Assembly (NCBI GenBank): GCA_963666985.2
Contig: CAXXIA010000002.1
Span: forward strand, 1,600,001 to 1,664,000
Length of the DNA stretch: 64,000 nucleotides
Direction of reading: 5' to 3'
Source: Spirochaetia bacterium
GTDB taxonomy: Bacteria; Spirochaetota; Spirochaetia; DSM-2461
Under the pieces are notes generated by a model. It saw only the letters and a program-made list of their open reading frames with translations, had not been told where the DNA came from and did not search any database. The position numbers and the translations under genes are program-made. Of this stretch, positions 27,732 to 49,430 are shown piece after piece. How positions within the stretch are numbered: the first letter of the stretch is position 1; each line of letters begins with the position of its first letter.

Positions 27732-28628
27732 TCAAGCACCTTCCGGGAACCAGTTATTTCGTCCCTTTATCCAAGGAAAAAGACGGCTCATCTGCTCTCT
27801 CCGAACAAAGTGAGCTTCGTTTTCAGGCAATTGCCGTTCCAAACGATTTAAGGCGGCAATATAATAACCTAGCAGCCGGAGTAACCCCGAAAGGATATAA
27901 GGTTTCTCAATAAATGCTCTTTTAACACATTTTGCATGAATAAACAGCGGATGCATACTCAGGCAATAATCTGTTTTCCCAAGATTAATTCGAGCCTTAA
28001 GTATACCGGAAGAATTTCCGGTTCCCAATGGTCTATTATGGGTAACAACAATCGAAGGAAAAGACCACGTTTCCCATCCGTTTAAACGAGCGGCGATCTC
28101 CATTCTCGAATCTTCACCGCCATACTTAAACGGGATGTAGCCGCCAAGAACTTCAAAGCATTCTCTACGAAAAACTTGAAGAGCTTTGGGCGTCGATCGA
28201 CGATCTATATTAATAATCTTTATTTTCCCTTTATGAGATTCCTGATAAACACCCGTTGCAATTCCCAATTCCGGAAACTTTGTCATTTTTTTATAGATCT
28301 GTTCGTAATAATTTTCTACAAGTTCGATATCAGCATCCAGAATAGCAAGATATTCATAATCTGTAACACCGGCCTCTTCAATACCATAATTTATAGCAAA
28401 AACATTACTGCTATAATATGTTTGACCCGGTACTCGTTTTCGATCCAACAACCGTATCCAATTATTATCTTTTAAATATTTTGATACAATGTTTTTTGAC
28501 TGATCAAGAGAACCATCATCTACGATGATCCATTGAATTGGTTTAATTGTCTGGGAGAGAACACTTCTAATTGTTTTTTCAATATAGCGTTCTTCATTAA
28601 ACATTGGTGTAATAATGATATATTTCAT
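27732..28628 (-). CDS. Glycosyltransferase family 2
   Basis: IITPMFNEE, IVDDGSLD, LDAD, GGED. Confidence 0.9.
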   Translation of the reverse strand: MKYIIITPMFNEERYIEKTIRSVLSQTIKPIQWIIVDDGSLDQSKNIVSKYLKDNNWIRLLDRKRVPGQTYYSSNVFAINYGIEEAGVTDYEYLAILDADIELVENYYEQIYKKMTKFPELGIATGVYQESHKGKIKIINIDRRSTPKALQVFRRECFEVLGGYIPFKYGGEDSRMEIAARLNGWETWSFPSIVVTHNRPLGTGNSSGILKARINLGKTDYCLSMHPLFIHAKCVKRAFIEKPYILSGLLRLLGYYIAALNRLERQLPENEAHFVRREQMSRLFPWIKGRNNWFPEGA

Positions 28629-28891
28629 CTGATGTTCTCTAACGGATCCTTTATAAAAATTAGGCTGAAAACGCATTAAAATCCAATCGGGCAATAATAC
28701 AATAATGCAAGAATAACACTATTTTTTCAGCCCTTTTCGCGATTGTAATATTTCATAATTAAACAAGATCTACAATCACTTCAATCATGAAATTGCTTTC
28801 AAGTCATGATGTTAATAGCTGTTTTTTTCTCATTTCCATCAATCCGGTTCCGATGATATCGGGTTACATTCATCAATTCTCTTCCAACAGA

Positions 28892-29875
28892 CTACTTATA
28901 TTCAATAATCGTATTCTTTCGGCGGAACCGATTATTTATACGATACTTACACAAACCAATAAATTGAGGTAATTTGGCCGCCATACAATGAATTGAATAA
29001 ATCACGGCTTCATTCTTTTTTAATCCTTGCCTCCGCCAAAGAGATAGAAAGATTTTCACTGTCATTAACGGGTAAACAATAAGGAAAAATAAACCCCTTC
29101 CGCCAAGTAGAATCAAGAAGATAACGGTAATCAGCGGAATTACCCCTATCCAAAAAAGAAGACTTCGCTTTTCCTTAACATAATAATGCTCCCGAGAGCG
29201 ACCATACATGGAAGAGCCCAAAGCATAGGCATATCCTCCTCTCATGGAACGACGCCACCATTGAAAAAAATGCGTCATCGCGACATCATGAAACCCCATT
29301 TCGTCTGGGATTCTCCATATTTTATAGCCGATGGAACGAATTCTTATGCACAGTTCCCCCTCTTCTCCTGCGATAACGGTCTTATTCATTCCACCAAGAC
29401 GGCGATATACTTCTGATCGAACTACAAAAATCCCGCCGCAGGCTTCTATTTCGCCTACAGGGCCCCTCCATTCGATATCACAAATCCTATTATAAATAGT
29501 CTTCTCGGGATATTGTTCATAAAGAAATCCGCAGACAACCGCGACGTTCTTCGATTCGTTAAGAAAAGAGACTGCCTTCTCCAGCCATCCGTTACTCAGC
29601 TCACAGTCTCCGTCAACAAATTGGACGTATTCAAGCTCAGGGTATCGTTCCGTCAGCTTTTCAAAGCCCTCGTTCCTTCCGCGGGCTGCTGAAAATGGCT
29701 CATCGGCGCTAAGCTCCCATACAAGCACGCCCATTTCTTTCGCCAAAAAAACACTATTGTCCGAAGAACCCGAATCAACATAGATAACCTTCTCGGTAAC
29801 ATGTAAAACGGACTTCAAACAAAGCGGAAGACGCTTGCCCTCATTTCTTCCGATAACAACGACACCGATATTCAT
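28892..29875 (-). CDS. Glycosyltransferase family 2
   Basis: IGVVVIGRNEG, YVDSGSSD, FSAARGRNEG, FVDGD, AGEEGELC. Confidence 0.9.
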   Translation of the reverse strand: MNIGVVVIGRNEGKRLPLCLKSVLHVTEKVIYVDSGSSDNSVFLAKEMGVLVWELSADEPFSAARGRNEGFEKLTERYPELEYVQFVDGDCELSNGWLEKAVSFLNESKNVAVVCGFLYEQYPEKTIYNRICDIEWRGPVGEIEACGGIFVVRSEVYRRLGGMNKTVIAGEEGELCIRIRSIGYKIWRIPDEMGFHDVAMTHFFQWWRRSMRGGYAYALGSSMYGRSREHYYVKEKRSLLFWIGVIPLITVIFLILLGGRGLFFLIVYPLMTVKIFLSLWRRQGLKKNEAVIYSIHCMAAKLPQFIGLCKYRINNRFRRKNTIIEYK

Positions 29876-31119
29876 ATACTTTTCACTTCCGTTCTTTCCG
29901 ATGGATGTAAAATATCTTCAAAGAAGTTCGCCATGCTTCGACAATTTTTTCTCAGATCATAATCTTCCAGAATTGTTTTCCTTCCGCTTTCACCAAGCCG
30001 CTTTCTTTTTGAAGGATCATTTATGAGGTCTCGAATAGCCTCTACCAGCGACGTGGTTTCGGAGGCATAGACAAGCCGGCCATTCTCGCCGTCCCGGATC
30101 AACTCCGGGATTCCGTTTATATATGTGGATATCGTTGCAATGCCTTTAGCCATTGATTCCATAAGAACCACGGGCAAGCCTTCGGCAAAACTGGGAAGAA
30201 TGAAAATATCAGCTTTATCGTAGTATTGATGAACTTCCGCTTGTCCAACGGCACCGGTAAAGCTAACGGCCTCTTCCCAGCCATGCTCCGCTACGGCTCG
30301 CTCTAATCCCGCACGATCCGGGCCGTCGCCAACAAATGTCAAATGAACATTTAGACCTTCCGAAAGGAGAAGTCCAACCGCCTCCAGAAGAATATGCTGA
30401 CCCTTAGCCGGAACAAGACGACCCAGGCAGAGAATCTCTGGAATATTATTGCCGGGTTCGGGCCGAAGATCGAAAACATCGGGATCAATTCCACAGCGTA
30501 TAATTCGAAATTTGGTCCAATCCTCTGTCGGAACAAGGCGCATGGCTTGACTGCAGCAATAATGACTGATACATCGAACACCGGCCGCTCTCTGAATCTT
30601 ACGAACCAACGCGTTCCCGGGAATGTCGAAAAAAACATCCGGTCCATGGAGACTAATGCTGTACTCAAAAGATCCATAACTCGCGGCAATCATCGCAACC
30701 GTGGCCGCAGGATTCGCAAAATGAACATGAAGATGAACGGCTTCATTTCTTTTCATCCAGCGAATTATAAGGACGGCCTCGAAGAAGTACATTGTTCTTT
30801 TAATCCAAGAAACCGAAGTCTCATCCAATAACCTATGCGCATTAATAAATAAGCGCAAATAGCGAAAAGGAGAAGAAAAGAAAAGACTTAGGTGATCCCT
30901 AAAGACAGTCATCTTCCCGGCCGACTTAATATAAAAGGTCTCTTGTTTGTCCCGCTGTTCTTCGGGGGTCATTCTTTCAACATTCTTTGAATCGTTAATA
31001 GATGCTGTTATAACACTATACCCCCGGTCGCGAAGAATCCGTACCTCTCGAAAAATAAAGGTATGAGAGATAGCCGGGTACTCGCTCGCAAGATAGCCAA
31101 TTTTTTGATTAGTTATCAT
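29872..31119 (-). CDS. Glycosyltransferase family 4 (WcaL-like)
   Basis: YPAISHTFIFRE, HLHVHFAN, GRLVPAKG, PSFAEGLPVVLMESMA. Confidence 0.92.
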   Translation of the reverse strand: MITNQKIGYLASEYPAISHTFIFREVRILRDRGYSVITASINDSKNVERMTPEEQRDKQETFYIKSAGKMTVFRDHLSLFFSSPFRYLRLFINAHRLLDETSVSWIKRTMYFFEAVLIIRWMKRNEAVHLHVHFANPAATVAMIAASYGSFEYSISLHGPDVFFDIPGNALVRKIQRAAGVRCISHYCCSQAMRLVPTEDWTKFRIIRCGIDPDVFDLRPEPGNNIPEILCLGRLVPAKGQHILLEAVGLLLSEGLNVHLTFVGDGPDRAGLERAVAEHGWEEAVSFTGAVGQAEVHQYYDKADIFILPSFAEGLPVVLMESMAKGIATISTYINGIPELIRDGENGRLVYASETTSLVEAIRDLINDPSKRKRLGESGRKTILEDYDLRKNCRSMANFFEDILHPSERTEVKSI

Positions 31120-31258
31120 CGGATCACCTTCTACCGAAAAGGCCTCTCCGGAGAAGGACTCTTTGGTATTTTCACTCCTTAAATGAGTTATTCAAATTCC
31201 CTATACGTTTATCCGGAGTATGTTAACCATGGAAAATCTCATAAAAGACGCATGTTAC

Positions 31259-32389
31259 TCAATCATCCGTTTCGGATACATCGGCCGGTTTCGTACCCCG
31301 AAGCTTCGCCGAAAGCGATTCGGTAAGCATTACCAGAATCGCCCAGGGAGTTTTCAAGATAATCCAAACGTCATTAAGAAAGGTTATCTTTTTGCAATAG
31401 GCGATGTCCAGACGAATCATCTGTTTGAAAGTTAACTTGTTCTTTCCGCTAACCTGCCAAAGGCCTGTAAGACCCGGCATTGTATCGAATCTGTGTGTGT
31501 GCCAACGAAGATATTCCTGTGCCTCGTAGGGTATACAGGGACGGGGACCGACCAGACTCATATCTCCTTTTAATATATTCCAAAGCTGAGGCAACTCGTC
31601 GATACAGGTCGCTCTTAGGATTTTTCCCCCGGGGATAATGCGAGGATCGTGTCCGTCCAGTTTATCCATGGGAACATTTCCATCCTTGATAAAATTTTGT
31701 GAATGTTTGCCATGAAAATCCTGATCGTTCCCATGTTTCATAGATCTGAACTTGTGGAATTGAAACGGGATTCCCTTATAGCCGATTCTTTCCTGATGAA
31801 AGAAAATAGGACCCGGTGAAATTATTTTTATATACAACCCGACAAAAATAAGGAGTGGCGAGAGAAGCAATATCATCAAAAAGGAAATAAGGATGTCCAT
31901 TGTCCTTTTCCAGATAGGCATCTTATAAACAAAGATAGCTTCCATGGCGGCTTTGCTTTCGCTGGAGAGAAAATCCTGATGCAAACCACCGCCGAGATAA
32001 TTCGCAACCCAATGATCCGGATAGGTATACACATTTAACTCGAAGTAGTGTCGATAATGACCGAGGATACCCCGACATTTTTCGCAAAAAACGCGGGCTC
32101 CCTCGTTGTCGGTATCCGGCAGAAGAATGGAAATATTCCCCTGTTTATCCCATGCAACTCGATCTACGGATCTGATGGAATGGAAAATTGCGATAAGGAG
32201 TTCATTAAAAATGACCTCTTCTTTGAGTATAAAATCTAAAACAACCATAGAAAACGGATTCCCGAATCGATTTGACCTAACCCGTTCGTGATTGACGAGG
32301 ACTCGAAACTCTTCAGGTGAAAGAATAATCCCCGTTTCCGGGAACTGAAGACCATGCGCGGCCGATTTTTTTATCTTTGAGGCTATCAT
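31259..32389 (-). CDS. Priming phosphoglycosyl transferase (bacterial sugar transferase) with N-terminal degenerate GGDEF-like domain
   Basis: KRTMD, KFRSM, DPR, IDELPQLWNILKGDMSLVGPRP; N-terminal ERVRSNR...RSVD...ILLPDT. Confidence 0.9.
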   Translation of the reverse strand: MIASKIKKSAAHGLQFPETGIILSPEEFRVLVNHERVRSNRFGNPFSMVVLDFILKEEVIFNELLIAIFHSIRSVDRVAWDKQGNISILLPDTDNEGARVFCEKCRGILGHYRHYFELNVYTYPDHWVANYLGGGLHQDFLSSESKAAMEAIFVYKMPIWKRTMDILISFLMILLLSPLLIFVGLYIKIISPGPIFFHQERIGYKGIPFQFHKFRSMKHGNDQDFHGKHSQNFIKDGNVPMDKLDGHDPRIIPGGKILRATCIDELPQLWNILKGDMSLVGPRPCIPYEAQEYLRWHTHRFDTMPGLTGLWQVSGKNKLTFKQMIRLDIAYCKKITFLNDVWIILKTPWAILVMLTESLSAKLRGTKPADVSETDD

Positions 32390-32517
32390 TCTTTTTAACC
32401 TTGTTTGGGAAGTCCTCTAATTAACCGATATCAATACTCAAGCCCAATAAGGCTCTCAGAAAATTACGATATTGAAAATATCGCACTATGGACCAACTAT
32501 CAGACACTTGATGGAAA

Positions 32518-33558
32518 TTAATGCTGCTTTTCTTCTATTTCGCTCAGGATCCCTTTCGACGGCTTCCTGCGGATCAGCGCCCGCCGGGCCTTTACCCAAA
32601 ATTCACAGATATAAACAATAATCATTATTTGGACTATTGAGATTAAAAAGGAAGAGAAGACATCATTGGAAAAGCCGCCGAAAACAAAAGCTAGAGATTT
32701 TTTAATCAACCCGCCGATTATTGTATGAAAGGCTAGAAGCGGGATTGCATAGCGATTGATCAGCCTTGTTAAGCTGGTCGGTTTAAGGCTTCTGGAGGCA
32801 ATGATTACAGTATAAATACCGAAAAGCGACGCAGGAATAAGGATCATGACTTTTCCCGCTTCATGATAATATAAATCTAATCGGCCGTTTGAAAACGCAA
32901 GAAATATTGATATGAGAAAGAATGGAATCAATAAATGTTCCTCAATTTTCAACAATCCGGGCGATTCTTTTGAATTGTAGATCGCACCTAAGTGAAAATA
33001 AAACAGCCCGATAAAGGCAATATCGATACTCCACGGTAATGCGAATTTGAATTTAAAAAGATATATCCCAAAAATGGTCAGCAACAAAAAAACAATTGTA
33101 TTTATCAGCGCTCCAAGTTGAAGCTTTTCGAATAACCAATAGAATTCATTCATTAGAAAAAGACAGGGTAAAAACCACATAGGTATTCCCCATTCCATAT
33201 ATTTCGGGCCACCCTGAGCGTAAAATATACCTATTACGTTTTTTATTACCCTCTCACAACTTGTAATCCCTCCCGACAGCCATCCCAAAGAAAGCCATTT
33301 AAGAAATAAAATTGCAGCGAATATAAAATAGGGAAGAACAAGTCGGTGAATCTTCTTCCGTGTAAAAGTCGCAAATGATGATTCTCTTTTGCAGTTAAAA
33401 ACAACACCGCTAATAAAAAAGAACAAGGGAATATGAAAAGAATATACATAGTGAAAAACCGGATTCTGAATGTGATGGCCCCAAATCACGCAAAAAATGC
33501 CGATTGCGCGCGCAGTATCAATGTATTGCAGTCTATCCTGCTGAGTTATTTGATTCAT
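32518..33558 (-). CDS. Acyltransferase family 3 (membrane O-acyltransferase)
   Basis: RLQYIDTARAIGIFCVIWGH, YSFHIPLFFFISG, RLVLPY, MWFLPCLF; about 10 TM helices. Confidence 0.9.
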   Translation of the reverse strand: MNQITQQDRLQYIDTARAIGIFCVIWGHHIQNPVFHYVYSFHIPLFFFISGVVFNCKRESSFATFTRKKIHRLVLPYFIFAAILFLKWLSLGWLSGGITSCERVIKNVIGIFYAQGGPKYMEWGIPMWFLPCLFLMNEFYWLFEKLQLGALINTIVFLLLTIFGIYLFKFKFALPWSIDIAFIGLFYFHLGAIYNSKESPGLLKIEEHLLIPFFLISIFLAFSNGRLDLYYHEAGKVMILIPASLFGIYTVIIASRSLKPTSLTRLINRYAIPLLAFHTIIGGLIKKSLAFVFGGFSNDVFSSFLISIVQIMIIVYICEFWVKARRALIRRKPSKGILSEIEEKQH

Positions 33559-33572
33559 TGTTGCTGTGTTTC

Positions 33573-36500
33573 CTAAATTGCGTTGTTTTCTAAAGCCTGT
33601 TTTATTTTATTAGCCGTCTCTTCGGCATAAGGCGCTTTCAGGATTTCCAAATGTGTCCCCGGTGTATTTTCAATAAACAAGTTATCTCCGAAATACTCAG
33701 CCCAGCCATACTTGGGATCAAAATAGAATCCGGGCTTATTCTGCTCTCCAATTGCTTTTATTAGCAATGTTTTTCCTTGATACTTATATTTGTGAGAAAT
33801 ATTATTTTTTTCGAATTGTTTGGTGGCAACTTGGTAAACTCGAATTCTTTGCAGAAGATTCATATCATTCTCTGTTTGTGTATTATGCTTCAGACTATCG
33901 ATTTTTTCCTTGATGGCTTTTAGGGTGGCAGGAACTCCCCTCTTAAAACTTTTTTTAATTTGATTCATCAATTTCTCAATTGGCTTTCGCTTGATTGCCG
34001 AAAGAAGTAATGTGTCAAGTATAATCAGTAATTCCACCTCTTGTCCGGCTTCCTTAAGTTTCTTTGCCACATCATATGCCACAACCCCGCCGAAAGATAA
34101 ACCGATGATGGAAACAGGTCTTCCCTGACTATGCTGTCGGATAATATTACAATAATCGGAAGCAAATGCTTCAATATTCCATTCGTCCTGACCTTGATCC
34201 CCAATAAGCAGATTTACTTCCCTGGGATGGTATGTAGCATAGCATTTTGCAATATCGGCCAAATGAACCGCTAATTCATGGTACATCTGAACACCAATGA
34301 CAAAATAGAAAAGCCGATCTGCAGAAGATTTATTGATTTCGATAACATTCTTTAATTCATATTCCGGTTGAGAATGAAGAAGCTCATAATTTTCCGCGTT
34401 TCTGGATAAACTTCCCAACAATCCTCTTAAGATATGATTACAATCTATAAAATTCGTTTGCAGAACATCGCCCTGCTCCGCTTCGGAGTTAATGTAACTG
34501 AGTAATTTCAAGGTTCCATTATCTTCACGGACATCCAGGTACAGTGGATTTTTCTCCCAAATTCGCGGGTTGAATGAATATTCAAACTCAAGCCCCGGAA
34601 AGTCCAAGTCACCTTCTTTATAGGCGGCACTATTATTAATGACAAAATCAGCTTGCGGTATTCTATCCCCTAATTCCACTCGTAAACTTTCTATATCAAC
34701 CAAATGATCATAAGCATTTAAAAAAGCCGTTTGTGTTGCCTTCACAATATCTAGAAAACTACTTTTAGTTGTAAGGTCCAAATTCAACAAAACAAGATTG
34801 GCACAGTTCCCGATCAAGTCGTGTTTGTTAACCCATAACTGACCGGCGATTGGAACTCCAATGGTAATGTTTGATCGTCCGAATGTATCTCTCAAAATGG
34901 AGTACATCATCGATACCATCAAAATAAACACGCTGTAGTTTGTTGTTGCGCTTACGTTCTTTAACTGACGGTACACATCACCGTCTATTGAAAACTCTCT
35001 ATACCTTGTCTTAATTGTTGAGCAGGAACCTATCTTAATAATTGGCTGCACGGTTTTTGCTCTGAATTGATCAAAACGCTCATTCCAATAATTTATTATG
35101 CCTTGATAAGTTTCTTCTTCTTTTCGACTTTTCAAGAAATGTACATAATCATGGAAATCGAATACCGTAGTTTGGGACTTGGATTCGACCCCGAGGGTAT
35201 ACGCCTCGGACAATTTTTTTAAAATAATATCGAAGGACCATCCGTCACATATGGATCTGTGATACAGAAGAAGTACGATCCATTCATCTCTTGTTTTTCG
35301 TAGGATATGAACTCTGATCAACGGACCGTCGGTAAGATTGAAGGGCGATTGGTGTTCATGTAAAAGAAGATCGTTATAGAACGCATCCTGTGTTTTTTCG
35401 GGAGATTCCCTCAGATCATGAAATTCATATAACGGAAAGAAATTTTTGCGAACGCGAAATCCTGTTCCCTCTTGTGTATAGACCGCATGCAATATTTCAT
35501 TATTGCTGATTACCTTGTTGAAAGAATCGGTAAATCGATCCTTGTCAAAATCACCTTTGAAAAACAATCTAACCGAATCGATATATAAGCAGGAACGTGT
35601 TTCGTCTTTGCATTCTTGCCATATCGATATTTGGGCGTCGGTGGCCGGAATTTCATAATTCCCGAGATTTTTTCTTTCAAGTATTTCATTCTCTGAAATA
35701 GATACTTCGACATTTCGTGAAGGATTTAAATTCTTCTTGTGAGTATCGATATATTCAAAAAGAAGCCTGATATTGGGGTATTCTTGGAGTAACTGGCCAA
35801 AGGTTACGTTAACCTTAAATTCTTTACTAACCCGATATGCAATCTGAGTTAATAAAAGAGAATCCATCCCCATTTCCATAAAGGTAGATTCTTCATCGAA
35901 GTCATCAAGGGAAAACCCGGAGGTCTCTTCAAAAAGAGAAACGAGTTTCTCAACGCTTCCGGAGGTCTTATCCTCCGTCAATTCCTCGGACGCTCCCGTT
36001 GAGAATCCGTTTTCACGCTCCCCGTCGTTATCACCTGTTTCCATCACCTTAATAACAACAGGATCAACCCAATAACTTTTCCGATCAAACTGATATGTGG
36101 GAATAGGAATCTTCCTTCTTATTTCATTCTGGTAGAACGATTCCCAATCTATGGAATATCCGTAAAGCCAGAGCTGGCCAACGGCTCTTAAGACCGCCGT
36201 ATATTCGGCATTATTCTCCGCTTTAGAATCCATGGAAGAAATAATTCCCCGCGCTTTATTCGGTTGAAGATGCTGTCGGGTAAGTGTCGCAAGTGTATTC
36301 CGTGGGCCAACTTCCAAGAAAACAGCATTCTCTCTTTCGGAAAGGTATTGAATTGCATTGGAAAAAAGCACCGGGTTTTTAACGTGATTACCCCAATAAG
36401 ACGGTTCCGTTAATTCTTCTGAAACCGCTCTGCCCAGAACCGTAGAGACAATAGGAATCTGAGGCGTCCGTAAAGAAACCTTGGCCACCTCTTCCGTAAA

Positions 36501-39500
36501 AACAGGAACAACCGGTTCCATCATCTCCGAATGAAAAGCATGAGAGGTATGAAGAAGACTGTGCGGAATCTCTTCTTTCTCCAGAGTCACGATAACTCCG
36601 TTTATGGCCTCATCCGGTCCCGATAAAACACAGAGATTTGGACTATTAACCGCCGCAAGCTGAATGGATTCGGATAAATACTTCTCCACCTCTGCAACCG
36701 GCGCCTTCACGGAAAGCATACATCCGCCGGGCATCTCTTTGACTAATCGACCTCGGGCGGCTACAAGAGTCAGAGCTTCTTCTAAGGTAAATACACCGGA
36801 AAGACAGGCACATACAAACTCACCAATGCTGTGCCCAACCAGAATTGACGGCTTTATTCCCCAAGACATCAGGAGCATGGATAAAGCATACTCAATCACA
36901 AAAATAGCAGGCTGAGTAAAAAATGTATCCTTTAATGCTTCATAAGAGGCTTTTTCATCTTGTGAATCAGGATAAACAACCGTCCGAAGATCTCGACCAA
37001 GAAGATTCTCCAGAAAATCACAGCACTGATCGACAGCTTGTTTGAAGATAGGCTCTCCCGCATAAAGCTGTTTTCCCATATTGATGTATTGCGATCCCTG
37101 TCCGGGAAACATAAAGACGATTTCAGGCTCTTTCTCCAAACACGTTCGCGATCCTGTTGTTAACGGCGACCTCTTGCCGAATGCCTCCTGAGGATTTACA
37201 TCATCAGGAACAACAAGAAATCTCCTTTCGGAAAAACCTCTCCGCCCCGTCTGAAGAGTATAGGCCGCATCGGCTTTGACATTGGCTTTTTCAGCCGATA
37301 AAAAATGCCCCATCTTGGCTGTTACTTCCTCTAAGCTTGAAGAAGTTTTCGCAGACAGAAGAAACAATTGAACGGGCCGGGAAGGGCCTGATTCGTTATA
37401 GACTGGAGCTTCCTTTACAACAGCATGAACGTTTGTTCCGCCGAAACCGAAACTTGAAACGGCCGCAATTCTTTTTTTCCCGCCTCTTTTCCAAGCAGTC
37501 CTTTTATTAACAACCCAAAACGGACTGCTTGGAAAATCAATTTGCGGATTCTGAGATTTATAATTAAGCGTTGCGGGGATCTCCTCATGATAAAGACAGA
37601 GCGCCGCCTTGATTAAACCGGTAACTCCAGATGCAATCGTTGGGTGACCGATATTTCCCTTTATGGATCCAATTCCGCAAAATTGTGTCTTGTCCGTTTG
37701 CTTCCTGAATGCTTTAGTCAATGCTTCGATTTCTATGGGATCACCTATCGGCGTAGCCGTCCCATGAGCTTCAATGTAGCCGATATCTTCACTCACTACA
37801 TTTGCTTCGGCTTGAGCCCTTTCTATCACATCGGATTGTCCGGAAACACTCGGAGCAAGAAAACTGATCTTTTGTGATCCGTCGTTGTTTTTCGCGGATC
37901 CGATAATCGTGGCGTAAATCGTATCATTATCTTCCAAGGCTTCTTCCAGCCTTTTCAGCACAACAACACCAACACCATCGCAAAACATCGTTCCGGATGC
38001 CTCGGCGTCAAAGGGGCGGCAATGACCGTCTTTGGAAAAGGTTCCGCTCGGTTGATACAGGAATCCCCTTCTTTGAGGAATCCCTATATCGGAACCTCCG
38101 GCTATGGCGATATCACATTCATAATCCCTTAATGCCCGAAAGGCCAAATCCACAGCAAGAAGACTCGTTGAACAGCCAGTGTTTACGCTTACACCCGGTC
38201 CGGTTAAGTCAAGGGCATAGCACGTTCTTGTAGCGATATAATCCTTTTGGTTCCCATACTCAACGGTAAGATTGCCTACGGTATCAAGTAAATCTTTATG
38301 TCCGATTAAATTGACTGAGTAGTAGTGATTATCTCCGACTCCCGCGAAAGCGCCTATCGTGCCCGGATACGACTCCGAATCATAGCCGGCATGTTCCAGC
38401 GCCTTCCATGCCTCTTCAAGAAAAACCCGCTGCTGGGGGTCCATTACTTTTGCTTCCAGAGGAGAAACCCCAAAGAAAGAGGCATCAAAAAGATCTGCGT
38501 TATTTACGATACCTCTTGCAAGAATGTAATTCGGATTGTCCAGGAGATCTTCGTCGATACCCGGGCTCAATTGATCACGGGTAAAACGCGTAATTGACTC
38601 AACCTCGTTTATAATATTTTGCCAAAGTTCATCAATTGAATCGGCTCCCGGAAAACGGCCGGACATACCGATAATTGCGATTCCTTCGATATTATTGTGA
38701 TGCTTTTTGGAATAAAGATGTTTCTTTAACGACGAATTCCTTGCATTGCCGTCAAGCAGATCGGCAAATTGAGCTATCGTCGGATATTGAAATATTCTGA
38801 GGACCTGATAATCGGTACCAAAAGTGTCGTTTATTCTCGAAATCAGCTGGATTGCCAGAAGAGAAGATCCCCCAACTTCGAAAAAGCTGTCGTCAATTCC
38901 AATTCGGTCAAGATCAAGCTGTTCCTGCCAGAGACCTACGAGCTTTTTCTCCGTTTCACTCCTCGGGTTAATATAGGGAGTGGAAATATCCGGACGTGTT
39001 TGAACGGGTTTCGGTAATAATTTTCTATCCAGTTTACCATTGGAACTAAGCGGAAATTCATCTATACGTACATAGTGGCTCGGCACCATATACTCTGGGA
39101 GTTTCTGCCTGAGATGATCTTTGTATATTGAGATTGGGACGGATTTTTCCGTATTGGTTTTAACATATCCAACAAGACGTTTGAAACCCGGAACATCTTC
39201 CCTTAAAATCACAACCGCCTGATCCACAATCTCAAGTTCTTCAAGGCAAGATTCAATTTCTTCCAGTTCTACACGGAAGCCGCTGATTTTTACTTGTGAA
39301 TCAATCCTGCCCAGATATTCCACCGCACCATCGTCCCTGATCTGAGCCAAATCTCCCGTTTTATAGAATCTTATACAGCACCCTTGTGCATCCGCTTGCG
39401 TTATGAATTTTTCCGCCGTCAGTTCGGGCTTATTGATATATCCTCTCGCAACACCTATACCTGAAATATACAGCTCACCGCTTTCCCCTCTCTTAACCTC

Positions 39501-40529
39501 ATTACCGTTTTCGTCATGAATCGTAATATTGATATTGGAAATCGGAAAACCAATGGGCACACGGGAAAGATTTTTATCAGGACGACAATGCCAGCTGGTT
39601 ACATCAACGGCAGCTTCGGTAGGACCATATAGATTGTATAAATCGCCCTTACATAAATCAAAAAATCGATTATGAACGGCAACGTCCAAAGCCTCCCCGC
39701 TACAAATGACAAACCGAAGGGAATCGGAACGCTCCATTCTTTGTGATTCAAGAAATATCCGAAGCATAGAGGGAACGAAATGAACTATTGTTACGTTCTC
39801 CTCATCGATTAAATTAAGCAGATATTCAGGATCTTTATGTCCCTCGGGACGGGCAATTACCAATCGGGCGCCGATCATAAGCGGCCAAAAGAACTCCCAT
39901 ACGGATACATCAAATGAATACGGAGTTTTTTGAAGAACCGTATCCTCTTGTGTCATCTGAAATTCAGACTGCATCCACAGCAATCGGTTAACAATGCCGT
40001 CGTGCTGGTTCATAACGCCTTTAGGCATTCCCGTTGAACCGGAGGTATAAATTAAATACGCCAAATTTTCAGGAGTAACGGAGACTTCCGGATTTTCAAT
40101 GGCCGCCTCAGTCGGATCTAAATATTCACCAATACTGATAAAACGTATGGAAGATGTTATTTTCTCTTTAAATTTTATTTGCCCCAAGACAAGCAAAGCA
40201 CAGCTTTCTTCCAGCATATAATGAATTCGTTTTTCAGGCAGTGACGGATCTATCGGCAAATAAGCACCGCCTGCTTTGAGAATAGCAAGAAGAGCTATGA
40301 CCATCTCAAAAGATCTTTCCGCACAGACTCCGACGATTATATCTGCTTGCACACCAGCACGAATTAAATCTCGGGCGAGTATATTGGCTCTGAGATTCAT
40401 TTCAAAATAACTGAGAGATTGCTTTTCAAATTTCAGGGCTATTTGGCTGGGAAATCTGCTCGCCTGCTCTTCAATATAATGATGTAAACACTTTTCCCGA
40501 ATAAATTTATCATTCCCCGTGGCCGACAT
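33573..40529 (-). CDS. Hybrid NRPS / type I PKS: A-T-KS-AT-ACP-C(degenerate)-TE
   Basis: A: YTSGSTGMPKG, FDVSVWE, YGPTE, YKTGD, NGKLDR; T: FFEVGGSSL; KS: TGCSTSL, EAHGTAT, NIGH; AT: GQGSQ, GHSIGE, HAFH; ACP: MGMDSL; C: HRSICDG; TE: GLSFGG...GTH. Confidence 0.93.
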   Translation of the reverse strand: MSATGNDKFIREKCLHHYIEEQASRFPSQIALKFEKQSLSYFEMNLRANILARDLIRAGVQADIIVGVCAERSFEMVIALLAILKAGGAYLPIDPSLPEKRIHYMLEESCALLVLGQIKFKEKITSSIRFISIGEYLDPTEAAIENPEVSVTPENLAYLIYTSGSTGMPKGVMNQHDGIVNRLLWMQSEFQMTQEDTVLQKTPYSFDVSVWEFFWPLMIGARLVIARPEGHKDPEYLLNLIDEENVTIVHFVPSMLRIFLESQRMERSDSLRFVICSGEALDVAVHNRFFDLCKGDLYNLYGPTEAAVDVTSWHCRPDKNLSRVPIGFPISNINITIHDENGNEVKRGESGELYISGIGVARGYINKPELTAEKFITQADAQGCCIRFYKTGDLAQIRDDGAVEYLGRIDSQVKISGFRVELEEIESCLEELEIVDQAVVILREDVPGFKRLVGYVKTNTEKSVPISIYKDHLRQKLPEYMVPSHYVRIDEFPLSSNGKLDRKLLPKPVQTRPDISTPYINPRSETEKKLVGLWQEQLDLDRIGIDDSFFEVGGSSLLAIQLISRINDTFGTDYQVLRIFQYPTIAQFADLLDGNARNSSLKKHLYSKKHHNNIEGIAIIGMSGRFPGADSIDELWQNIINEVESITRFTRDQLSPGIDEDLLDNPNYILARGIVNNADLFDASFFGVSPLEAKVMDPQQRVFLEEAWKALEHAGYDSESYPGTIGAFAGVGDNHYYSVNLIGHKDLLDTVGNLTVEYGNQKDYIATRTCYALDLTGPGVSVNTGCSTSLLAVDLAFRALRDYECDIAIAGGSDIGIPQRRGFLYQPSGTFSKDGHCRPFDAEASGTMFCDGVGVVVLKRLEEALEDNDTIYATIIGSAKNNDGSQKISFLAPSVSGQSDVIERAQAEANVVSEDIGYIEAHGTATPIGDPIEIEALTKAFRKQTDKTQFCGIGSIKGNIGHPTIASGVTGLIKAALCLYHEEIPATLNYKSQNPQIDFPSSPFWVVNKRTAWKRGGKKRIAAVSSFGFGGTNVHAVVKEAPVYNESGPSRPVQLFLLSAKTSSSLEEVTAKMGHFLSAEKANVKADAAYTLQTGRRGFSERRFLVVPDDVNPQEAFGKRSPLTTGSRTCLEKEPEIVFMFPGQGSQYINMGKQLYAGEPIFKQAVDQCCDFLENLLGRDLRTVVYPDSQDEKASYEALKDTFFTQPAIFVIEYALSMLLMSWGIKPSILVGHSIGEFVCACLSGVFTLEEALTLVAARGRLVKEMPGGCMLSVKAPVAEVEKYLSESIQLAAVNSPNLCVLSGPDEAINGVIVTLEKEEIPHSLLHTSHAFHSEMMEPVVPVFTEEVAKVSLRTPQIPIVSTVLGRAVSEELTEPSYWGNHVKNPVLFSNAIQYLSERENAVFLEVGPRNTLATLTRQHLQPNKARGIISSMDSKAENNAEYTAVLRAVGQLWLYGYSIDWESFYQNEIRRKIPIPTYQFDRKSYWVDPVVIKVMETGDNDGERENGFSTGASEELTEDKTSGSVEKLVSLFEETSGFSLDDFDEESTFMEMGMDSLLLTQIAYRVSKEFKVNVTFGQLLQEYPNIRLLFEYIDTHKKNLNPSRNVEVSISENEILERKNLGNYEIPATDAQISIWQECKDETRSCLYIDSVRLFFKGDFDKDRFTDSFNKVISNNEILHAVYTQEGTGFRVRKNFFPLYEFHDLRESPEKTQDAFYNDLLLHEHQSPFNLTDGPLIRVHILRKTRDEWIVLLLYHRSICDGWSFDIILKKLSEAYTLGVESKSQTTVFDFHDYVHFLKSRKEEETYQGIINYWNERFDQFRAKTVQPIIKIGSCSTIKTRYREFSIDGDVYRQLKNVSATTNYSVFILMVSMMYSILRDTFGRSNITIGVPIAGQLWVNKHDLIGNCANLVLLNLDLTTKSSFLDIVKATQTAFLNAYDHLVDIESLRVELGDRIPQADFVINNSAAYKEGDLDFPGLEFEYSFNPRIWEKNPLYLDVREDNGTLKLLSYINSEAEQGDVLQTNFIDCNHILRGLLGSLSRNAENYELLHSQPEYELKNVIEINKSSADRLFYFVIGVQMYHELAVHLADIAKCYATYHPREVNLLIGDQGQDEWNIEAFASDYCNIIRQHSQGRPVSIIGLSFGGVVAYDVAKKLKEAGQEVELLIILDTLLLSAIKRKPIEKLMNQIKKSFKRGVPATLKAIKEKIDSLKHNTQTENDMNLLQRIRVYQVATKQFEKNNISHKYKYQGKTLLIKAIGEQNKPGFYFDPKYGWAEYFGDNLFIENTPGTHLEILKAPYAEETANKIKQALENNAI

Positions 40530-40543
40530 AAAAAGACCTCTTG

Positions 40544-41476
40544 TTAACTAAAAACATCACTTTGTAAAAATTTGATTATGCTGTCTTGGTCCATCACACC
40601 ATGCCCGCCGCGAAGTTTCAACCACCTTACCCGATAGCCTAGACTTACAGCCTTTTCCGCCATTAATTTATTTCCCGAATAGAGCCCTAAAGCATCCTGT
40701 TTCCCACAGGAAATATAAACGCTGTTTTCTTTCGGCGCGGTTCTCATCGTTTGGAAAATGTTATACCGATTCCAGTCGTCTTCAGTCGTTAAATAGCGTT
40801 TTTGAATGGATAAAACCGATTGGGCGCCATCCGTCCAGAGTTCTTTACGCAACACAATGTTTTTTATTTTTTCTCTTATCGTATTTCCGCCGTTCCTTTT
40901 CAGAAATCCATTAATTTCTTCATCTGTTGCGGTAAATGGAATGGGATAAATTCCTGCGGAAATCAAGATGGCGGAATTAAAGAAATCTGGATGATTGAAA
41001 AAGAGATACGAAGCACTCGTCCCGCCCATTGAAAAGCCCATTATAATTCTTTGATGATTCTTCCACCCCAGTTTTGACTCTATTTCCGGAATAACATCTT
41101 GAATTAAACGCTGTCCATAATCATTCTGCGGATCCGTAGGATTGGGTATGCACATAGTTTCCGGACCCGCCGAAAGCGATACAACCGCAATATTTTTACT
41201 TGTTGTTTTAAAATATTGATCATAATAACCCATCTCGGAATACCATGAGTCTTCGTTTCCGCCCTGGCCGTGCAGGTAATAGAAAACAAATTCCGGAGGA
41301 GTATGCTCCTCATTACCATAAAGCAAAACAACAGCACGAAAAGAATGTAATTCCATTCGTTCCATCTCAACTCGTTCTCCGCTCGTATTTTCGAAAAAAG
41401 CCTCCGCCTTTTGCCTTGGGATACAACCCGTGATGAACAATATCAACAGTAAAAAGGGAAGACTTCCTTTCTTCAT
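40544..41476 (-). CDS. Lipoprotein alpha/beta-fold esterase
   Basis: Lipobox ITGC, YYLHGQGG, GFSMGG, CGKQD, GGH. Confidence 0.85.
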   Translation of the reverse strand: MKKGSLPFLLLILFITGCIPRQKAEAFFENTSGERVEMERMELHSFRAVVLLYGNEEHTPPEFVFYYLHGQGGNEDSWYSEMGYYDQYFKTTSKNIAVVSLSAGPETMCIPNPTDPQNDYGQRLIQDVIPEIESKLGWKNHQRIIMGFSMGGTSASYLFFNHPDFFNSAILISAGIYPIPFTATDEEINGFLKRNGGNTIREKIKNIVLRKELWTDGAQSVLSIQKRYLTTEDDWNRYNIFQTMRTAPKENSVYISCGKQDALGLYSGNKLMAEKAVSLGYRVRWLKLRGGHGVMDQDSIIKFLQSDVFS

Positions 41477-41642
41477 ATTACCTCTCCGCAAAATCAACAA
41501 GACCCAATCAAAGCCAAATCGTAACGTTTCCTCTAATTTTGACCGCTGACTGTTTACGGCCTTGCAGCATCGCCGACTGTCTTTAACTCTATCACAAATC
41601 TCCGGCGCATCACCAGCAACAGACTATAATTACAAGAGGTTG

Positions 41643-42818
41643 TTAGTTTGGGTTAACATTATTGGAGCGCACATTTTCATTCGTTTCATTTAATTTGGAT
41701 TCGGCGGAATGCCGACGTTTCGCTTTTTGATGAACATAAGAAACAAAATGTCCGATCATCACGGGAACCGTTTTCAGAATAATTCCAAGGTCTTTCCAAA
41801 AAGAAAGATTTTCTCCATATCTGATATCCAATCGAATCATTTCCTTGAACGTCAGAGTATGCTTTCCACCAACCTGCCATGAACCCGTTAATCCCGGAAC
41901 GATATCGAATCGTTTTTTGTGCCAGTGAAGATACAGCTCGGCTTCATCGGGAAGGCACGGACGAGGGCCAACAAGGCTCATATCACCGCCCAGAACATTA
42001 AAAAGCTGAGGAATCTCATCCAAACCCATGGCTCGAAAGAAACCGCCACCGGGAATGAGATGCGGATCCCAATAATCGGTACCCATCGGTGTATTGCCAT
42101 CACGAATGAAACTTAACAAATCGTTATTTGCTTCCTCTTTATTACCATCGAGCTTCATCGTTCGAAATTTAAGAATTTTTATAATACGTCCGCCAAGACC
42201 GACCCGCTCTTCATGCTGAAAAATTGGTCCGGAAGACACACAGATAATGTAGAGAGGAATAAAAAGGAAAAGGGGGAACGAAACAACCAAGCCTAAAACG
42301 CTTACAAAGACATCAAGGTATCTCTTCCATCGCGGAGGTTTCTTGCAAAACATATCCGCAAGTTTGGCATCGTAGGTAGAGTAGTACTCAGGTTCCTCTT
42401 CATCGTCGTCCACAACCATTGTGATATTGCTTATTCTGGGATACATGCTCAAGCCGACGGATTTAACCAATTTAAAATCCGCAGTGGAGTCATGAACATT
42501 TTTAATAAATGCTTGAGCCCCGCTTATGGTTGTATCGGGCAGAAGAATGCCGATTTTTGAGTCCGAATGCCACCCCGCGTAATCGGTAATACGCATGTTT
42601 ATAAATATTGTTGCGAGAAAACGGCGAAACGTATAAAGAGTAACGGCATCAAAGTCAATTTCAATAAAAACCAAACAAAAACGACTTTTGGTTCGATCGG
42701 CCCGCATTCTTTCGTAACGTATGAGCTGGTGGAAGGCGTCGCGTCTAAGCGCGCCTTCCTGGTGGGTGTGCGTTACTTGAAAAGCATTAAGGGGAGTCCA
42801 TCTCGTTTTCTTGCCCAC
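41643..42818 (-). CDS. Second priming phosphoglycosyl transferase with N-terminal degenerate GGDEF-like domain
   Basis: KRYLD, KFRTM, LDEIPQLFNVLGGDMSLVGPRP; N-terminal ERMRADR...RITD...ILLPDT; GTG start uncertain. Confidence 0.88.
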   Translation of the reverse strand: MGKKTRWTPLNAFQVTHTHQEGALRRDAFHQLIRYERMRADRTKSRFCLVFIEIDFDAVTLYTFRRFLATIFINMRITDYAGWHSDSKIGILLPDTTISGAQAFIKNVHDSTADFKLVKSVGLSMYPRISNITMVVDDDEEEPEYYSTYDAKLADMFCKKPPRWKRYLDVFVSVLGLVVSFPLFLFIPLYIICVSSGPIFQHEERVGLGGRIIKILKFRTMKLDGNKEEANNDLLSFIRDGNTPMGTDYWDPHLIPGGGFFRAMGLDEIPQLFNVLGGDMSLVGPRPCLPDEAELYLHWHKKRFDIVPGLTGSWQVGGKHTLTFKEMIRLDIRYGENLSFWKDLGIILKTVPVMIGHFVSYVHQKAKRRHSAESKLNETNENVRSNNVNPN

Positions 42819-43042
42819 AATACCCAGTATAGAACGAATTACGGACTATAAATAGTCGGCCGCGACTCTTTTAATATTGTGACGATCCTCCTTGACTTCG
42901 TAAGAATTTCATGAATGAGGCCGATTTCCTTACCGTCTCATTGACATGCGCAGATGAAGTAGATAACTTTATTCATAGATAGTCGCTTTTTTTTTCCACA
43001 AGTTTTTTTTTTGAAATAAAGCGCGTTACTTTAAGGTTCATA

Positions 43043-43525
43043 ATGAACGGGAAGAATCGTAAACTCCTAGCTCACCTCAATGCTCTCGGCCTGTATACGG
43101 AGAAAGAATTCTATCGTATTCATGATTATGAGAAACTCCGCTCCGACAGAAACGGTATGCAATTCTCTTATATTATTCTCAATCTCGATACTAAGGCTAT
43201 TCCTTTGCGATCAGTCAAAAAACTGATAATGGGCATCCTCGGACAACTCCGCATTATCGACCATATCGGTTTGAGCGGGACGGATCGTATCGGTATTCTC
43301 CTTCCCGGTACCGAAAAAAGCGGCGCTTTGGGTTTCCTGAAGAATATTAATCATCTCCTTTCGGAGTTCCCTGGAATTTCCGTTGATGACATTATAACCT
43401 ATCCGGAACCCCAAGCTCTGATGACGGCAGTATCGGCATCCGTGGCTTCCGCAGCCATAGTGGAATCGTCCGATACCGCTGAAGCGGAGGAAGTCGTCAT
43501 TATCCCCTTTGAAATAAGCAAGTAG
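43043..43525 (+). CDS. Stand-alone degenerate GGDEF-like protein
   Basis: GLYTEKEF...EKLRSDR...RIID-HIGLS-GTDRI-GILLPGT...TYP; aligns with the N-termini of both sugar transferases. Confidence 0.7.
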   Translation: MNGKNRKLLAHLNALGLYTEKEFYRIHDYEKLRSDRNGMQFSYIILNLDTKAIPLRSVKKLIMGILGQLRIIDHIGLSGTDRIGILLPGTEKSGALGFLKNINHLLSEFPGISVDDIITYPEPQALMTAVSASVASAAIVESSDTAEAEEVVIIPFEISK

Positions 43526-43577
43526 TTCCACAGCAAGAGAAACAAGACCTTTACGGTCGGAGAACGGGACTGCTAAT

Positions 43578-44819
43578 ATGGCCGTAATGAATAAACTTCC
43601 CACTCTCACAGAACCGATTGAAACACCGGATAAACCAAAAAGTATTATAGATATCCTTCTTAAATACCTCATAATGCTCTGGCGTTACCGCGTGTTGATG
43701 GGAATTATCACAGCCTCGGGAACCTTCGTCGTTTTTACATTCTGCCTGCTTACCAAACTGCTGCCGCCGGAGATCAATCCTATGCCGAATCAATATACGG
43801 CCCAAGCGGTTCTCCTTGTCGATCGAGACAGTTCCGGCGGAGGGATCGGTTCCATTTTAGCCAGTTACGGTATGAATCTCGGCTTAGGATCATCTTCCGG
43901 CGGTAATAATATCGACCTGATTCTGACCATCTTGGACAGCCGTCCTTTTCTCGACCTTTTGGTGGAAGAATTTGATATTATCAACGAGAGAAGAATCAAA
44001 CTCGACCCAAAAACGAATTCCCGTCTAATAATTCAGAACATGTCCTCTCATTGGTATGATAAAACTTCAAATACGCTTACTTTAAGCTGTACCCACACAG
44101 ATCCGGAGTATGCGGCCGATTTCGTTAACAGACAGATTGAACTTCTCGAACAATGGTATACGCAATTCGGCGGACAGCGCGCCGAAAAGGATCTTCACCT
44201 CCTCGAGGTTCAGCTGGCCAACCAGGAAGGCCAAATAGCCCGGCTTGAAGATGAAATTAAAAAATTTCAACAGGAAAACAACACCATTTCGATCGAAGAT
44301 TTGGCCGCTCTTCAAGCGAAAATGATTGGCGATCTTCGAACCCAAATAACCCAGATTGATTTACAAATTCAAACGGCCCAGCAGTTTTCACAAGCCGCGA
44401 TTGAAAGCGAAAGCCTCATCAACTTAAGACTCCAGCGCAACAATCTGAACTATATGATTTCACAGTTGGAAAAAGGATATTCCGGCGGTGTAAAAATCAT
44501 GCCTTCGGCGGAAGAACTTCCGGACCTGGCCATCAAATATACAAAACTCCGTCAGGAAGCGGAGATTCAAGCAACTGTCTACCAAAAACTTCGGGAACAA
44601 TACGAAATAGCCAATCTCAATCAGGAACGAGCCGAAGCGTTCTCCGTGATGGAATATGCGGAAGTTCCCGAGTTAAAAGACTCTCCCCGCCGTTCGGTGA
44701 TTGTTGTCGGAGGCTTCTTCGTTTCTCTGCTCATCAGCATCCTCGTCGCATTCATTCTGGAATATTCGGGTCAAGTCATCGATATAATCAAGGAGAAAAT
44801 CAAGAATGAACAATCGTAA
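43578..44819 (+). CDS. Polysaccharide co-polymerase / chain-length determinant (Wzz/GumC-like, no kinase domain)
   Basis: TM-YTAQAVLL...coiled coil...EYAEVPELKDSPRRS-TM. Confidence 0.85.
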   Translation: MAVMNKLPTLTEPIETPDKPKSIIDILLKYLIMLWRYRVLMGIITASGTFVVFTFCLLTKLLPPEINPMPNQYTAQAVLLVDRDSSGGGIGSILASYGMNLGLGSSSGGNNIDLILTILDSRPFLDLLVEEFDIINERRIKLDPKTNSRLIIQNMSSHWYDKTSNTLTLSCTHTDPEYAADFVNRQIELLEQWYTQFGGQRAEKDLHLLEVQLANQEGQIARLEDEIKKFQQENNTISIEDLAALQAKMIGDLRTQITQIDLQIQTAQQFSQAAIESESLINLRLQRNNLNYMISQLEKGYSGGVKIMPSAEELPDLAIKYTKLRQEAEIQATVYQKLREQYEIANLNQERAEAFSVMEYAEVPELKDSPRRSVIVVGGFFVSLLISILVAFILEYSGQVIDIIKEKIKNEQS

Positions 44820-46927: not shown

Positions 46928-46962
46928 ATTCCCTCTCTCCATGGAATCTCTTCCGGAGTCGC

Positions 46963-48459: not shown

Positions 48460-48473
48460 TAAAGGAAGTCATT

Positions 48474-49427: not shown

Positions 49428-49430
49428 ATT

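Follow-up and report, generated by a model that had tools for sequence, protein, structure and literature searches.

A serine-type hybrid NRPS-PKS gene with a divergent tail in a spirochaete polysaccharide island: a possible source of an acyl donor for glycan decoration

INTRODUCTION

In DltABCD-mediated D-alanylation and AlmEFG-mediated lipid A glycylation, an adenylation domain and a carrier supply the membrane acyltransferase by which a surface polymer is decorated. The viosamine island of Pseudomonas syringae is described as building a custom 3-hydroxybutanoyl group for a sugar (PMC3927599), and membrane acyltransferase-3 (AT3) proteins are reported to move succinyl and other nonacetyl groups onto exopolysaccharides (PMC9558356). 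Here, we analyze a window of 64,000 nucleotides from a Spirochaetia bacterium (assembly GCA_963666985.2, contig CAXXIA010000002.1, positions 1,600,001 to 1,664,000), in which a gene for a hybrid nonribosomal peptide synthetase-polyketide synthase (NRPS-PKS), hereafter the synthase, lies within a polysaccharide island between genes for an esterase and an AT3 protein. The initial annotation of this DNA had proposed that the product serves as a glycan substituent, linker, or anchor rather than as a free antibiotic, an interpretation that our analysis partly supports. We favor, though only tentatively, a reading in which the synthase is the source of a serine-malonate C5 acyl donor for glycan decoration and the esterase, synthase, and AT3 genes form the acyl-decoration unit of the island.

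The synthase also has a condensation (C) domain in which the second His of the catalytic motif is replaced by Arg. Glycopeptide X domains, which carry the same replacement, are located before the thioesterase (TE). The X domain is described as recruiting enzymes (PMC11546977), and C domains of the HR type can reportedly be essential even without the Arg (PMC13492342).

RESULTS

The synthase gene is intact and is predicted to build a serine-malonate unit

The synthase is encoded by a single open reading frame (ORF) of 2318 amino acids (aa), uninterrupted by stops. Contigs from two runs of one sample, which may be the source of this DNA, are identical letter for letter over 26500-44000, with no gaps, and the gene is real and intact. 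Pfam matches occur in the order AMP-binding (aa 20-364/424-499), PP-binding (529-592), ketosynthase (KS; 616-990), acyltransferase (AT; 1138-1439), a second carrier (about 1529-1603), Condensation (1626-2009), and Thioesterase (2078-2311), which bears out the single-gene layout A-T-KS-AT-ACP-C-TE (A, adenylation; T, peptidyl carrier; ACP, acyl carrier protein) given in the initial annotation. No ketoreductase, dehydratase, or aminotransferase domain was matched in the synthase at a Pfam E value of ≤1e-4, again as claimed. The A-domain pocket, with positions set by flanking motifs, consists of D207, V208, W211, H250, I275, S277, L300, V308, D309, and K499, confirming the serine-type code DVWHISLVDK that had been read by eye. 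An identical code is found in module 1 of RlpB, which is reported to incorporate L-serine into variovoracins (PMC12964202), and by this exact match the A domain is predicted to activate L-serine. The KS triad noted earlier is complete (C786/H922/H962), and both carrier serines are in place. The AT motifs GHSIG and HAFHS were likewise confirmed, and we take them to mark a malonyl-type domain.

The arrangement is that of a cis-AT hybrid NRPS-PKS, in which an A domain and carrier are followed by KS, AT, and ACP in cis with catalytic residues intact. Both the code and the intact active sites lead to the proposed product, serine extended by a single malonyl unit: the A domain would load L-serine onto T, and the KS and AT would extend the seryl unit once with malonyl to yield 4-amino-5-hydroxy-3-oxopentanoyl-ACP.

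The tail combines an altered C domain with a complete thioesterase

The loss of a catalytic histidine in the C domain had been overlooked. The motif reads HRSICDG (35261-35241), lacking the second His of HHxxxDG, and no acceptor module follows the domain. The Arg codon, AGA, is two changes away from a His codon; on this ground, together with the contigs of the two runs (which share a sample and are not independent), a sequencing error was rejected. The TE stands directly after the altered C domain, with a third carrier and A domain absent between them, and has the triad S2145/D2172/H2293. An AlphaFold model of the C-TE region, from a 44-row alignment, shows a complete fold (mean pLDDT, 84.6) that matches C-family folds, and the fold search singles out no C subtype; the X domain 4tx2 is a weak sequence match (E 4.8e-4), and the LovB-type structure 6ad3 ranks 21st by fold. 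The altered C domain would form no peptide bond and may act as a spacer or docking surface, and the TE would remove the chain from the ACP.

The A, KS, and AT domains are 57-60%, 72-75%, and 56-58% identical, respectively, to those of the closest relatives (P0007, P0009, and P0013), whereas the C domain is only 23-24% identical to theirs and the TE is barely alignable. No relative of the C-TE region above 28% identity was found in several searches, one of which covered the best 150 of 59966 matches ranked by summed score, and the branch of the altered domain in the C-domain tree is very long (1.64). Because the A, KS, and AT domains are close to relatives and the C and TE domains reach at most 28% identity to anything found, the gene appears to be either a mosaic or one whose tail diverged very fast. 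A common origin of the altered C domain with those of other HR proteins (L053, P0062, P0063, and P0079) was not supported, as they stand apart in both the KS tree and the C tree, in which the branch in question is long.

The synthase is a variant member of a GHP[TS]-KS family

By both motif and clade placement, the synthase falls inside a family with the layout A-T-KS-AT-ACP-C-T-TE and the KS motif KG[NH][IV]GHP[TS] (P0007, P0009, P0013, and P0023-P0036; loci L010-L112). A DNA pattern for the KS motif returned 85 loci among GTDB genomes (80 with flanks), and a serine-type DNA pattern returned 14 metagenome loci. Most hosts are Acidobacteriota, and the others are Spirochaetota, Myxococcota, Thermodesulfobacteriota, Pseudomonadota, and a Fibrobacter-labeled bin. 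The serine code is found in most nonacidobacterial members; the acidobacterial ones share another code, presumably for glycine. In a quick KS tree of 132 rows, with SH-aLRT support only, the family forms one clade (99, against 9 outgroups), and the synthase clusters with P0007, P0009, and P0038 at a support of 97; P0013 joins next (85), and these four proteins are of the usual form. No match to the synthase at E ≤1e-30 was found in 13 same-genus genomes, several of them incomplete. No paper describing the family and no product of any member was found in the literature, of which our coverage was partial and included NRPS-PKS genes in polysaccharide loci and AT3-polyketide topics.

The usual family tail is C(HH)-T-TE, with a Cys nucleophile and Pro at the His column, from which the synthase departs with C(H to R), no third carrier, and a Ser-Asp-His TE. 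We aligned the C-TE regions of the synthase and 43 of the 57 available regions, the remaining 14 being near-redundant acidobacterial rows of the usual form. A complete TE triad (nucleophile, Asp, and His) is present in 10/10 rows without the C-domain His versus 2/34 rows with it (L081 and L089); four further rows flagged by script, with the His one column off, were excluded by eye for lacking the Asp or for carrying Pro at that column. Full-length AT3 genes were found in 5/12 loci in which the C-domain His is lost, 1/5 without a C domain, 1/2 with a PH motif, and 0/64 with an intact C domain, or 7/19 loci with an altered or absent C domain versus 0/64 (where two 180-aa fragments occur), with 6 loci left unclassified. 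This pattern of tails and AT3 genes reflects about two or three independent events, and the loci include near duplicates. These same genes also served to train the AT3 profile; Pfam neighbor scans, which excluded singleton ORFs of <170 aa in acidobacterial loci, put AT3 in the same places.

Other tail features were seen along the way. In the TE of most family members (L013-L109), the nucleophile is Cys, Glu replaces Asp, and Pro occupies the His column, and this terminal TE follows a carrier without its own A domain. Loci L030, L039, L054, L061, L069, L074, L077, and L088 end in C-T plus about 450 residues unmatched by the TE profile. In L016, L032, L034, L036, L043, L059, L062, L081, L084, and L105, the synthase is in at least two frames, through assembly errors or broken genes.

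The esterase and AT3 appear to be retained around exchanged synthases

The esterase gene lies 14 bp upstream and the AT3 gene 14 bp downstream of the synthase, all three on the minus strand. The AT3 protein matches PF01757 at 66.3 bits (cut-off, 31), and its DxxRx10H motif reads DTARAIGIFCVIWGH. In a Marispirochaeta island (G042; L044/L127-L129), a multigene NRPS/PKS set and an Sfp gene are surrounded by homologues of five proteins of the window: export (34%), chain length (38%), priming transferase (45%), AT3 (30%, 336 aa aligned), and esterase (29%, 252 aa aligned). A second island (G033; L161/L179) has the same export and chain-length genes, an esterase (25%), and an AT3 (31% over 327 aa), together with an Sfp gene and synthase genes encoding an A-T-KS-AT-T-TE and C-A-T pair. 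Across the two, the export and chain-length proteins are 30-39% identical to those of the window, an Sfp-type gene touches AT3, and the NRPS/PKS genes are of other lineages, suggesting that the esterase and AT3 were retained while the synthase was swapped between spirochaete islands.

The esterase is rare (1/37 family genomes and 3/400 phylum genomes). Its four best-scoring relatives (G042, G023, G347, and G033) lie within one gene of the TE end of an NRPS(-PKS); two weaker ones (G133 and G196) fall outside that range. A lipobox-like N-terminus was found in 7/7 homologues by regular expression and by eye, and the esterase is probably exported; the same N-termini make a role as a type II thioesterase unlikely. 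Orthology to the hydrolases beside L064, L104, and L111 was not supported (E ≥0.05). The same esterase also stands beside spirochaete KS-AT-T-C-A-T-TE lines (L127, L128, L132, L138, and L044) whose C motif starts with PH and whose TE reads GEC[LV]GG.

All four AT3 relatives for which context is available adjoin acyl-building genes. Those of G042 and G033 are beside NRPS-PKS and Sfp genes, and the only two others in 400 genomes, both in surface-glycan loci, are beside FabH-like and 3-hydroxyacyl-coenzyme A (CoA) dehydrogenase genes (G100) and beside acyl ligase, short-chain dehydrogenase/reductase, and FabH-like genes (G160). The AT3 relatives at L158:10248-13964 and L159:10623-16790, which neighbor FabH-like, reductase/dehydrogenase, and ligase genes, are candidates for nonacetyl O-acylation. 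A single orthologous AT3 group beside family members was rejected, with about 27% identity over 90-150 aa.

Family loci are enriched in polysaccharide markers at the two-family level

Linkage was counted in 59 full-length family loci of at least 18 kb, with markers sought within about 6-7 kb. At least one polysaccharide marker was present in 36/59 loci and at least two marker families in 28/59, compared with 5.5% and 1.1% of random own-genome windows and with 7/18 and 1/18 of a control set of other spirochaete NRPS/PKS loci. The family is set apart from the control by the two-family measure and barely so by the one-marker measure. The association of family members with polysaccharide genes, on which the earlier interpretation depended, is genuine but incomplete, with no marker in range in 23/59 loci.

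Only an AcpS-size priming enzyme was found in the host genome

AcpS is known only rarely to prime NRPS carriers. Locating a phosphopantetheinyl transferase (PPTase) elsewhere in the genome had been proposed as a check: the only PF01648 match, on contig C1 near 1200666, is AcpS-size. No PPTase of the Sfp/EntD type was found in the host genome (93% complete) by PF22624, PF17837 (over the cut-off), an Sfp protein query, or three local Sfp/EntD profiles read through stops. An Sfp-size PPTase is present in 4/4 genomes of other family members, and a local Sfp-type gene is present in 26/59 full-length family loci as well as in both sister islands. Genome G015 (96% complete) has a stand-alone C-A-T-R NRPS (L160:6038-10276), and its PPTase match is only AcpS-size. 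With a host genome that is 93% complete, and with an NRPS paired with an AcpS-size enzyme only in G015, the gap makes a working synthase less likely without excluding it.

Two genomes of the genus of G015 (G020 and G024) have one PPTase match each. The host genome encodes a second carrier-domain protein (G000:C2:2255919-2259275, L097; 1118 aa) with a start that resembles a fatty-acyl AMP ligase by eye; it is preceded by an acyltransferase-like ORF and a family 2 glycosyltransferase (GT2) and would also need a PPTase.

The surrounding island is a Wzx/Wzy-type polysaccharide locus

Features of the window are listed in Table 1. Island genes have a GC content of 0.28-0.50 and a third-position GC content (GC3) of 0.24-0.54, against a genome GC of 0.51. 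Priming, glycosyltransferase (GT), flippase, chain-length, and export genes of a Wzx/Wzy-dependent locus are present, with the polymerase recognized by a weak Pfam match and Atlas look-alikes only. The synthase had been described as flanked by priming transferases and GTs; the esterase and AT3 in fact adjoin it, and the priming transferases stand one gene further out on each side, followed by GTs. The reported lack of a small-molecule exporter nearby agrees with the absence of MFS, RND, and ABC matches by Pfam over 25001-63744, a region in which 11 ORFs have no Pfam match and might still include an exporter. A promoter/terminator scan gave counts near the shuffled level, and there are no tRNA genes in the window.

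Table 1. Coordinates of the synthase, its domains, and neighboring features in the window
Feature	Coordinates	Strand	Evidence
Hybrid NRPS-PKS gene, A(Ser)-T-KS-AT-ACP-C(H to R)-TE	33573-40529	-	ORF, Pfam, motifs
Adenylation domain, serine code DVWHISLVDK	39015-40472	-	Motif-placed pocket residues
Peptidyl carrier domain (GGSSL)	38754-38945	-	Pfam, motif
Ketosynthase, C-H-H triad intact, family motif KGNIGHPTIASG	37410-38693	-	Motifs
Acyltransferase domain, GHSIG/HAFHS	36213-37118	-	Pfam, motif
Acyl carrier domain (GMDSL)	35748-35951	-	Motif
Condensation-fold domain, second His to Arg	34503-35654	-	Pfam, motif
Thioesterase with Ser-Asp-His triad	33597-34298	-	Pfam, motifs
Alpha/beta esterase PF00756, lipobox-like ITGC, GFSMGG, GGH; likely start about 41476	40544-41500	-	Pfam, motifs
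AT3 PF01757, DxxRx10H intact	32518-33558	-	Pfam, motif
Priming glycosylphosphotransferase (Bac_transf)	41643-42818	-	Pfam
Priming glycosylphosphotransferase (Bac_transf)	31259-32389	-	Pfam
GT4	29872-31119	-	Pfam
GT2	28892-29875	-	Pfam
GT2	27732-28694	-	Pfam
WecG/TagA-family glycosyltransferase	26784-27578	+	Pfam
Divergent arm: chain-length, SLBB export, RmlC, RmlD-like, epimerase, GT2, second AT3, pyruvyl transferase, Wzx	43578-54417	+	
Wzy/O-antigen-ligase-like membrane protein	54524-55924	-	Weak Pfam match (E 0.0017), Atlas look-alikes
Whole low-GC polysaccharide island	26784-62506	.	Gene GC, GC3

Within the island, a 160-aa ORF without a family match (43043-43525, plus strand) clusters with the N-terminal halves of both priming transferases and has, by eye, a putative degenerate GGDEF-type fold. 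The second AT3, pyruvyl transferase, and Wzx genes (50613-54417) have a much lower GC (0.28-0.35) and are probably a later insertion. A sigma-54 response regulator (59700-61106, minus strand) lies at the island edge, and a homologue (39%) adjoins the synthase in L064. Four ORFs (55984-57732, 57969-58634, 58647-59609, and 61325-62506) encode probably exported proteins without a Pfam or NCBIfam match; 58647-59609 has homologues next to the L053 synthase and within the G042 island, and the latter also contains one of 57969-58634. Outside the island, a sulfotransferase gene (17912-18877, minus strand) has a sugar ABC importer and a gene of a metalloenzyme superfamily in its vicinity.

DISCUSSION

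In the reading that we favor, the C5 unit, an acyl residue that would add 129.04 Da, would cross the membrane via AT3, and the exported esterase would either put it on the glycan or trim it off, two steps suggested by co-inheritance. This proposal is weakest at the point where the TE would pass the unit to AT3. The tight three-gene unit, with its 14-bp gaps, inside the island argues for the proposal. So do the sister islands, the positions of the best esterase relatives near NRPS TE ends and of all four AT3 relatives beside acyl-building genes, the two-family marker counts, the occurrence of full-length AT3 genes in loci with an altered or absent C domain and in none with an intact one, and the nonacetyl transfers reported for AT3 proteins (PMC9558356). 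Of the roles named in the initial annotation, that of a substituent gains from the conserved esterase and AT3, and that of a linker or anchor gains nothing, with no fatty-acyl loader or starter C domain present.

Several points weigh against decoration. A free gamma-amino beta-keto thioester is expected to cyclize spontaneously. No Sfp/EntD PPTase was found in the host genome, as described above. At the one-marker level, the family (36/59) is barely set apart from the control (7/18); 23/59 family loci have no marker in range, and among serine-code loci only 10/25 have at least one marker and 6/25 at least two families, 15 of these 25 loci being shorter than 18 kb. The marker hidden Markov models were built from family loci and this window, Acidobacteria dominate the counts, and kin are not independent. 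The G033 and G042 islands share flanking genes, probably belong to one genus, and are not independent either, and G347 pairs the esterase with an NRPS-PKS without a polysaccharide marker in 37 kb. Most AT3 genes that neighbor family members are orthologous neither to one another nor to the AT3 gene beside the synthase. The AT3 donors shown in vitro are reported to be acyl-CoAs and not ACP (PMC9558356), and DxxRx10H, which the window's AT3 retains, is a CoA-binding motif (PMC12423673). No CoA ligase was found in the island, and the AT3 may therefore be a plain O-acetylase.

A different account, which we consider unlikely, is that the synthase is a stand-alone mini assembly line whose TE frees a small molecule, perhaps a signal or cargo co-regulated with the polysaccharide, while AT3 and the esterase acetylate or deacetylate the glycan independently. 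Candidate products would be 5-(hydroxymethyl)pyrrolidine-2,4-dione (129.04 Da), the linear acid (147.05 Da), and the decarboxylated 3-amino-4-hydroxybutan-2-one (103.06 Da). A canonical Ser-Asp-His TE right behind a dead C domain favors this account, and the full triad in every aligned row without the C-domain His, against 2 of 34 with it, would be expected had TE release replaced transfer; the 23 marker-free loci, together with Curvibacter, Teredinibacter, and Desulfobacterales loci without a polysaccharide marker, fit as well. However, no exporter family was matched in the island, the synthase splits two priming-transferase genes of one co-oriented run, and the esterase and AT3 keep their places around exchanged synthases.

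The PPTase gap is one ground for regarding the synthase as an inactive or decaying passenger, with carriers left apo in an island that arrived or persisted without its Sfp-type enzyme and a drifting C domain; the Sfp-type genes of the other family genomes, loci, and sister islands, the C-domain branch length of 1.64, and the lack of a match in 13 same-genus genomes all point this way. We nevertheless judge this improbable: the 7-kb frame is intact with all other active sites kept, the C-TE region is modeled as a complete fold, the assembly reaches 93% completeness, an NRPS occurs in G015 beside a PPTase match of AcpS size only, and HRxxxDG domains are described as capable of being essential (PMC13492342). 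We regard as very improbable a role of the product as a linker or lipid anchor, by which it would initiate the polysaccharide or hold it in place. The two priming transferases on either side of the unit could be read in favor of this role, as could the myxoglucamides, glycolipopeptides with a gamma-amino acid that are reported to be made by an NRPS/PKS together with a glycosyltransferase (PMC13638107), but the synthase contains neither a fatty-acyl ligase nor a starter C domain, nor any reductive or aminotransferase domain, and the Wzx, Wzy-like, chain-length, and export genes of the island indicate an undecaprenyl-linked pathway in which a special anchor is unneeded.

Glycan decoration by the C5 unit may be part of a wider arrangement, although we regard this extension as doubtful. 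Spirochaete islands could contain a modular acyl-delivery device, in which a fixed AT3 and a fixed exported esterase serve an interchangeable NRPS-PKS cassette that sets the amino-acid-ketide group on the polymer, and the family could have two off-loading routes, one through an active C domain, third carrier, and His-less Cys-TE and the other through a dead C domain, full TE, and AT3. With such a device, the transfer of an assembly-line product to a glycan via AT3 would be seen for the first time, and serotypes could vary chemically through it. If family members decorate glycans, many clusters that genome mining assigns to antibiotics serve instead to modify the cell surface, and the donor range of AT3 enzymes would extend past the acyl-CoAs of primary metabolism. 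The synthase is a handy test case, with one gene, one predicted C5 product of defined mass, and two named partners, and a weak flagship, in that its carriers may go unprimed in the host and no other member shares its tail.

Compared with known systems, the synthase is a true hybrid NRPS-PKS of an uncharacterized family and represents a new tail variant. It shares the A-T-KS-AT-ACP core, the KS clade, and the frequent polysaccharide setting with the GHP[TS]-KS family, most members of which, unlike the synthase, have an intact C domain, a third carrier, and a Cys-TE whose His column holds Pro. Four features are new: a full TE behind a dead C domain, a mosaic tail, an esterase and AT3 that stay fixed as synthases are swapped, and the Sfp gap; hybrid NRPS-PKS genes in polysaccharide loci recur in at least six phyla among the family loci examined. 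The Dlt and Alm systems differ from the synthase in having no ketide extension, discrete proteins, and other transferase families. The tetramate route of TAS1, by Dieckmann cyclization, does not apply, with no starter C domain or acyl loader before the A domain, and any ring formed from the synthase product would arise by lactamization.

The viosamine island (vioS, acp, vioR, and vioB) resembles this locus in that dedicated KS and carrier genes lie inside a glycan locus, and it differs in that its type II enzymes are separate proteins, no amino acid is loaded, and VioB N-acylates a nucleotide sugar (PMC3927599); no amino-sugar aminotransferase or VioB-like N-acyltransferase was matched by Pfam in the window's island. 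The O-acyltransferases ExoH, ExoZ, IcaC, and OafB, of the AT3 or AT3-SGNH type, share PF01757, DxxRx10H, and an exopolysaccharide locus with the window's AT3; known donors are acyl-CoAs of primary metabolism, and the available portions of these reports do not name an assembly-line donor (PMC9558356, PMC9833829, PMC12423673). The exported serine hydrolase beside AT3 could take the role of the SGNH domain, but it is a PF00756 esterase and not an SGNH protein. LovB-type C-terminal C domains (HRxxxDG) and the glycopeptide X domain (HRxxxDD) have Arg for the second His, as in the synthase (PMC13492342, PMC11546977), and the X domain also sits in the terminal module (PMC11546977). The synthase motif ends in DG and not DD and no p450 was matched in the window, and the likeness to either domain is probably convergent. 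The myxoglucamide line likewise joins NRPS/PKS gamma-amino acid chemistry to a sugar; its product, unlike that of the synthase, is described as a small glycolipopeptide started from a fatty acid, and its C-fold protein MxgH is described as O-acylating glucose in a manner that needs the second His (PMC13638107). That His is absent from the altered C domain, which is therefore unlikely to be the transferase. The synthase thus belongs to neither the viosamine nor the Dlt/Alm group, and it would match their purpose, the supply of a tailored acyl group to a sugar or surface polymer, only if the decoration reading that we favor holds.

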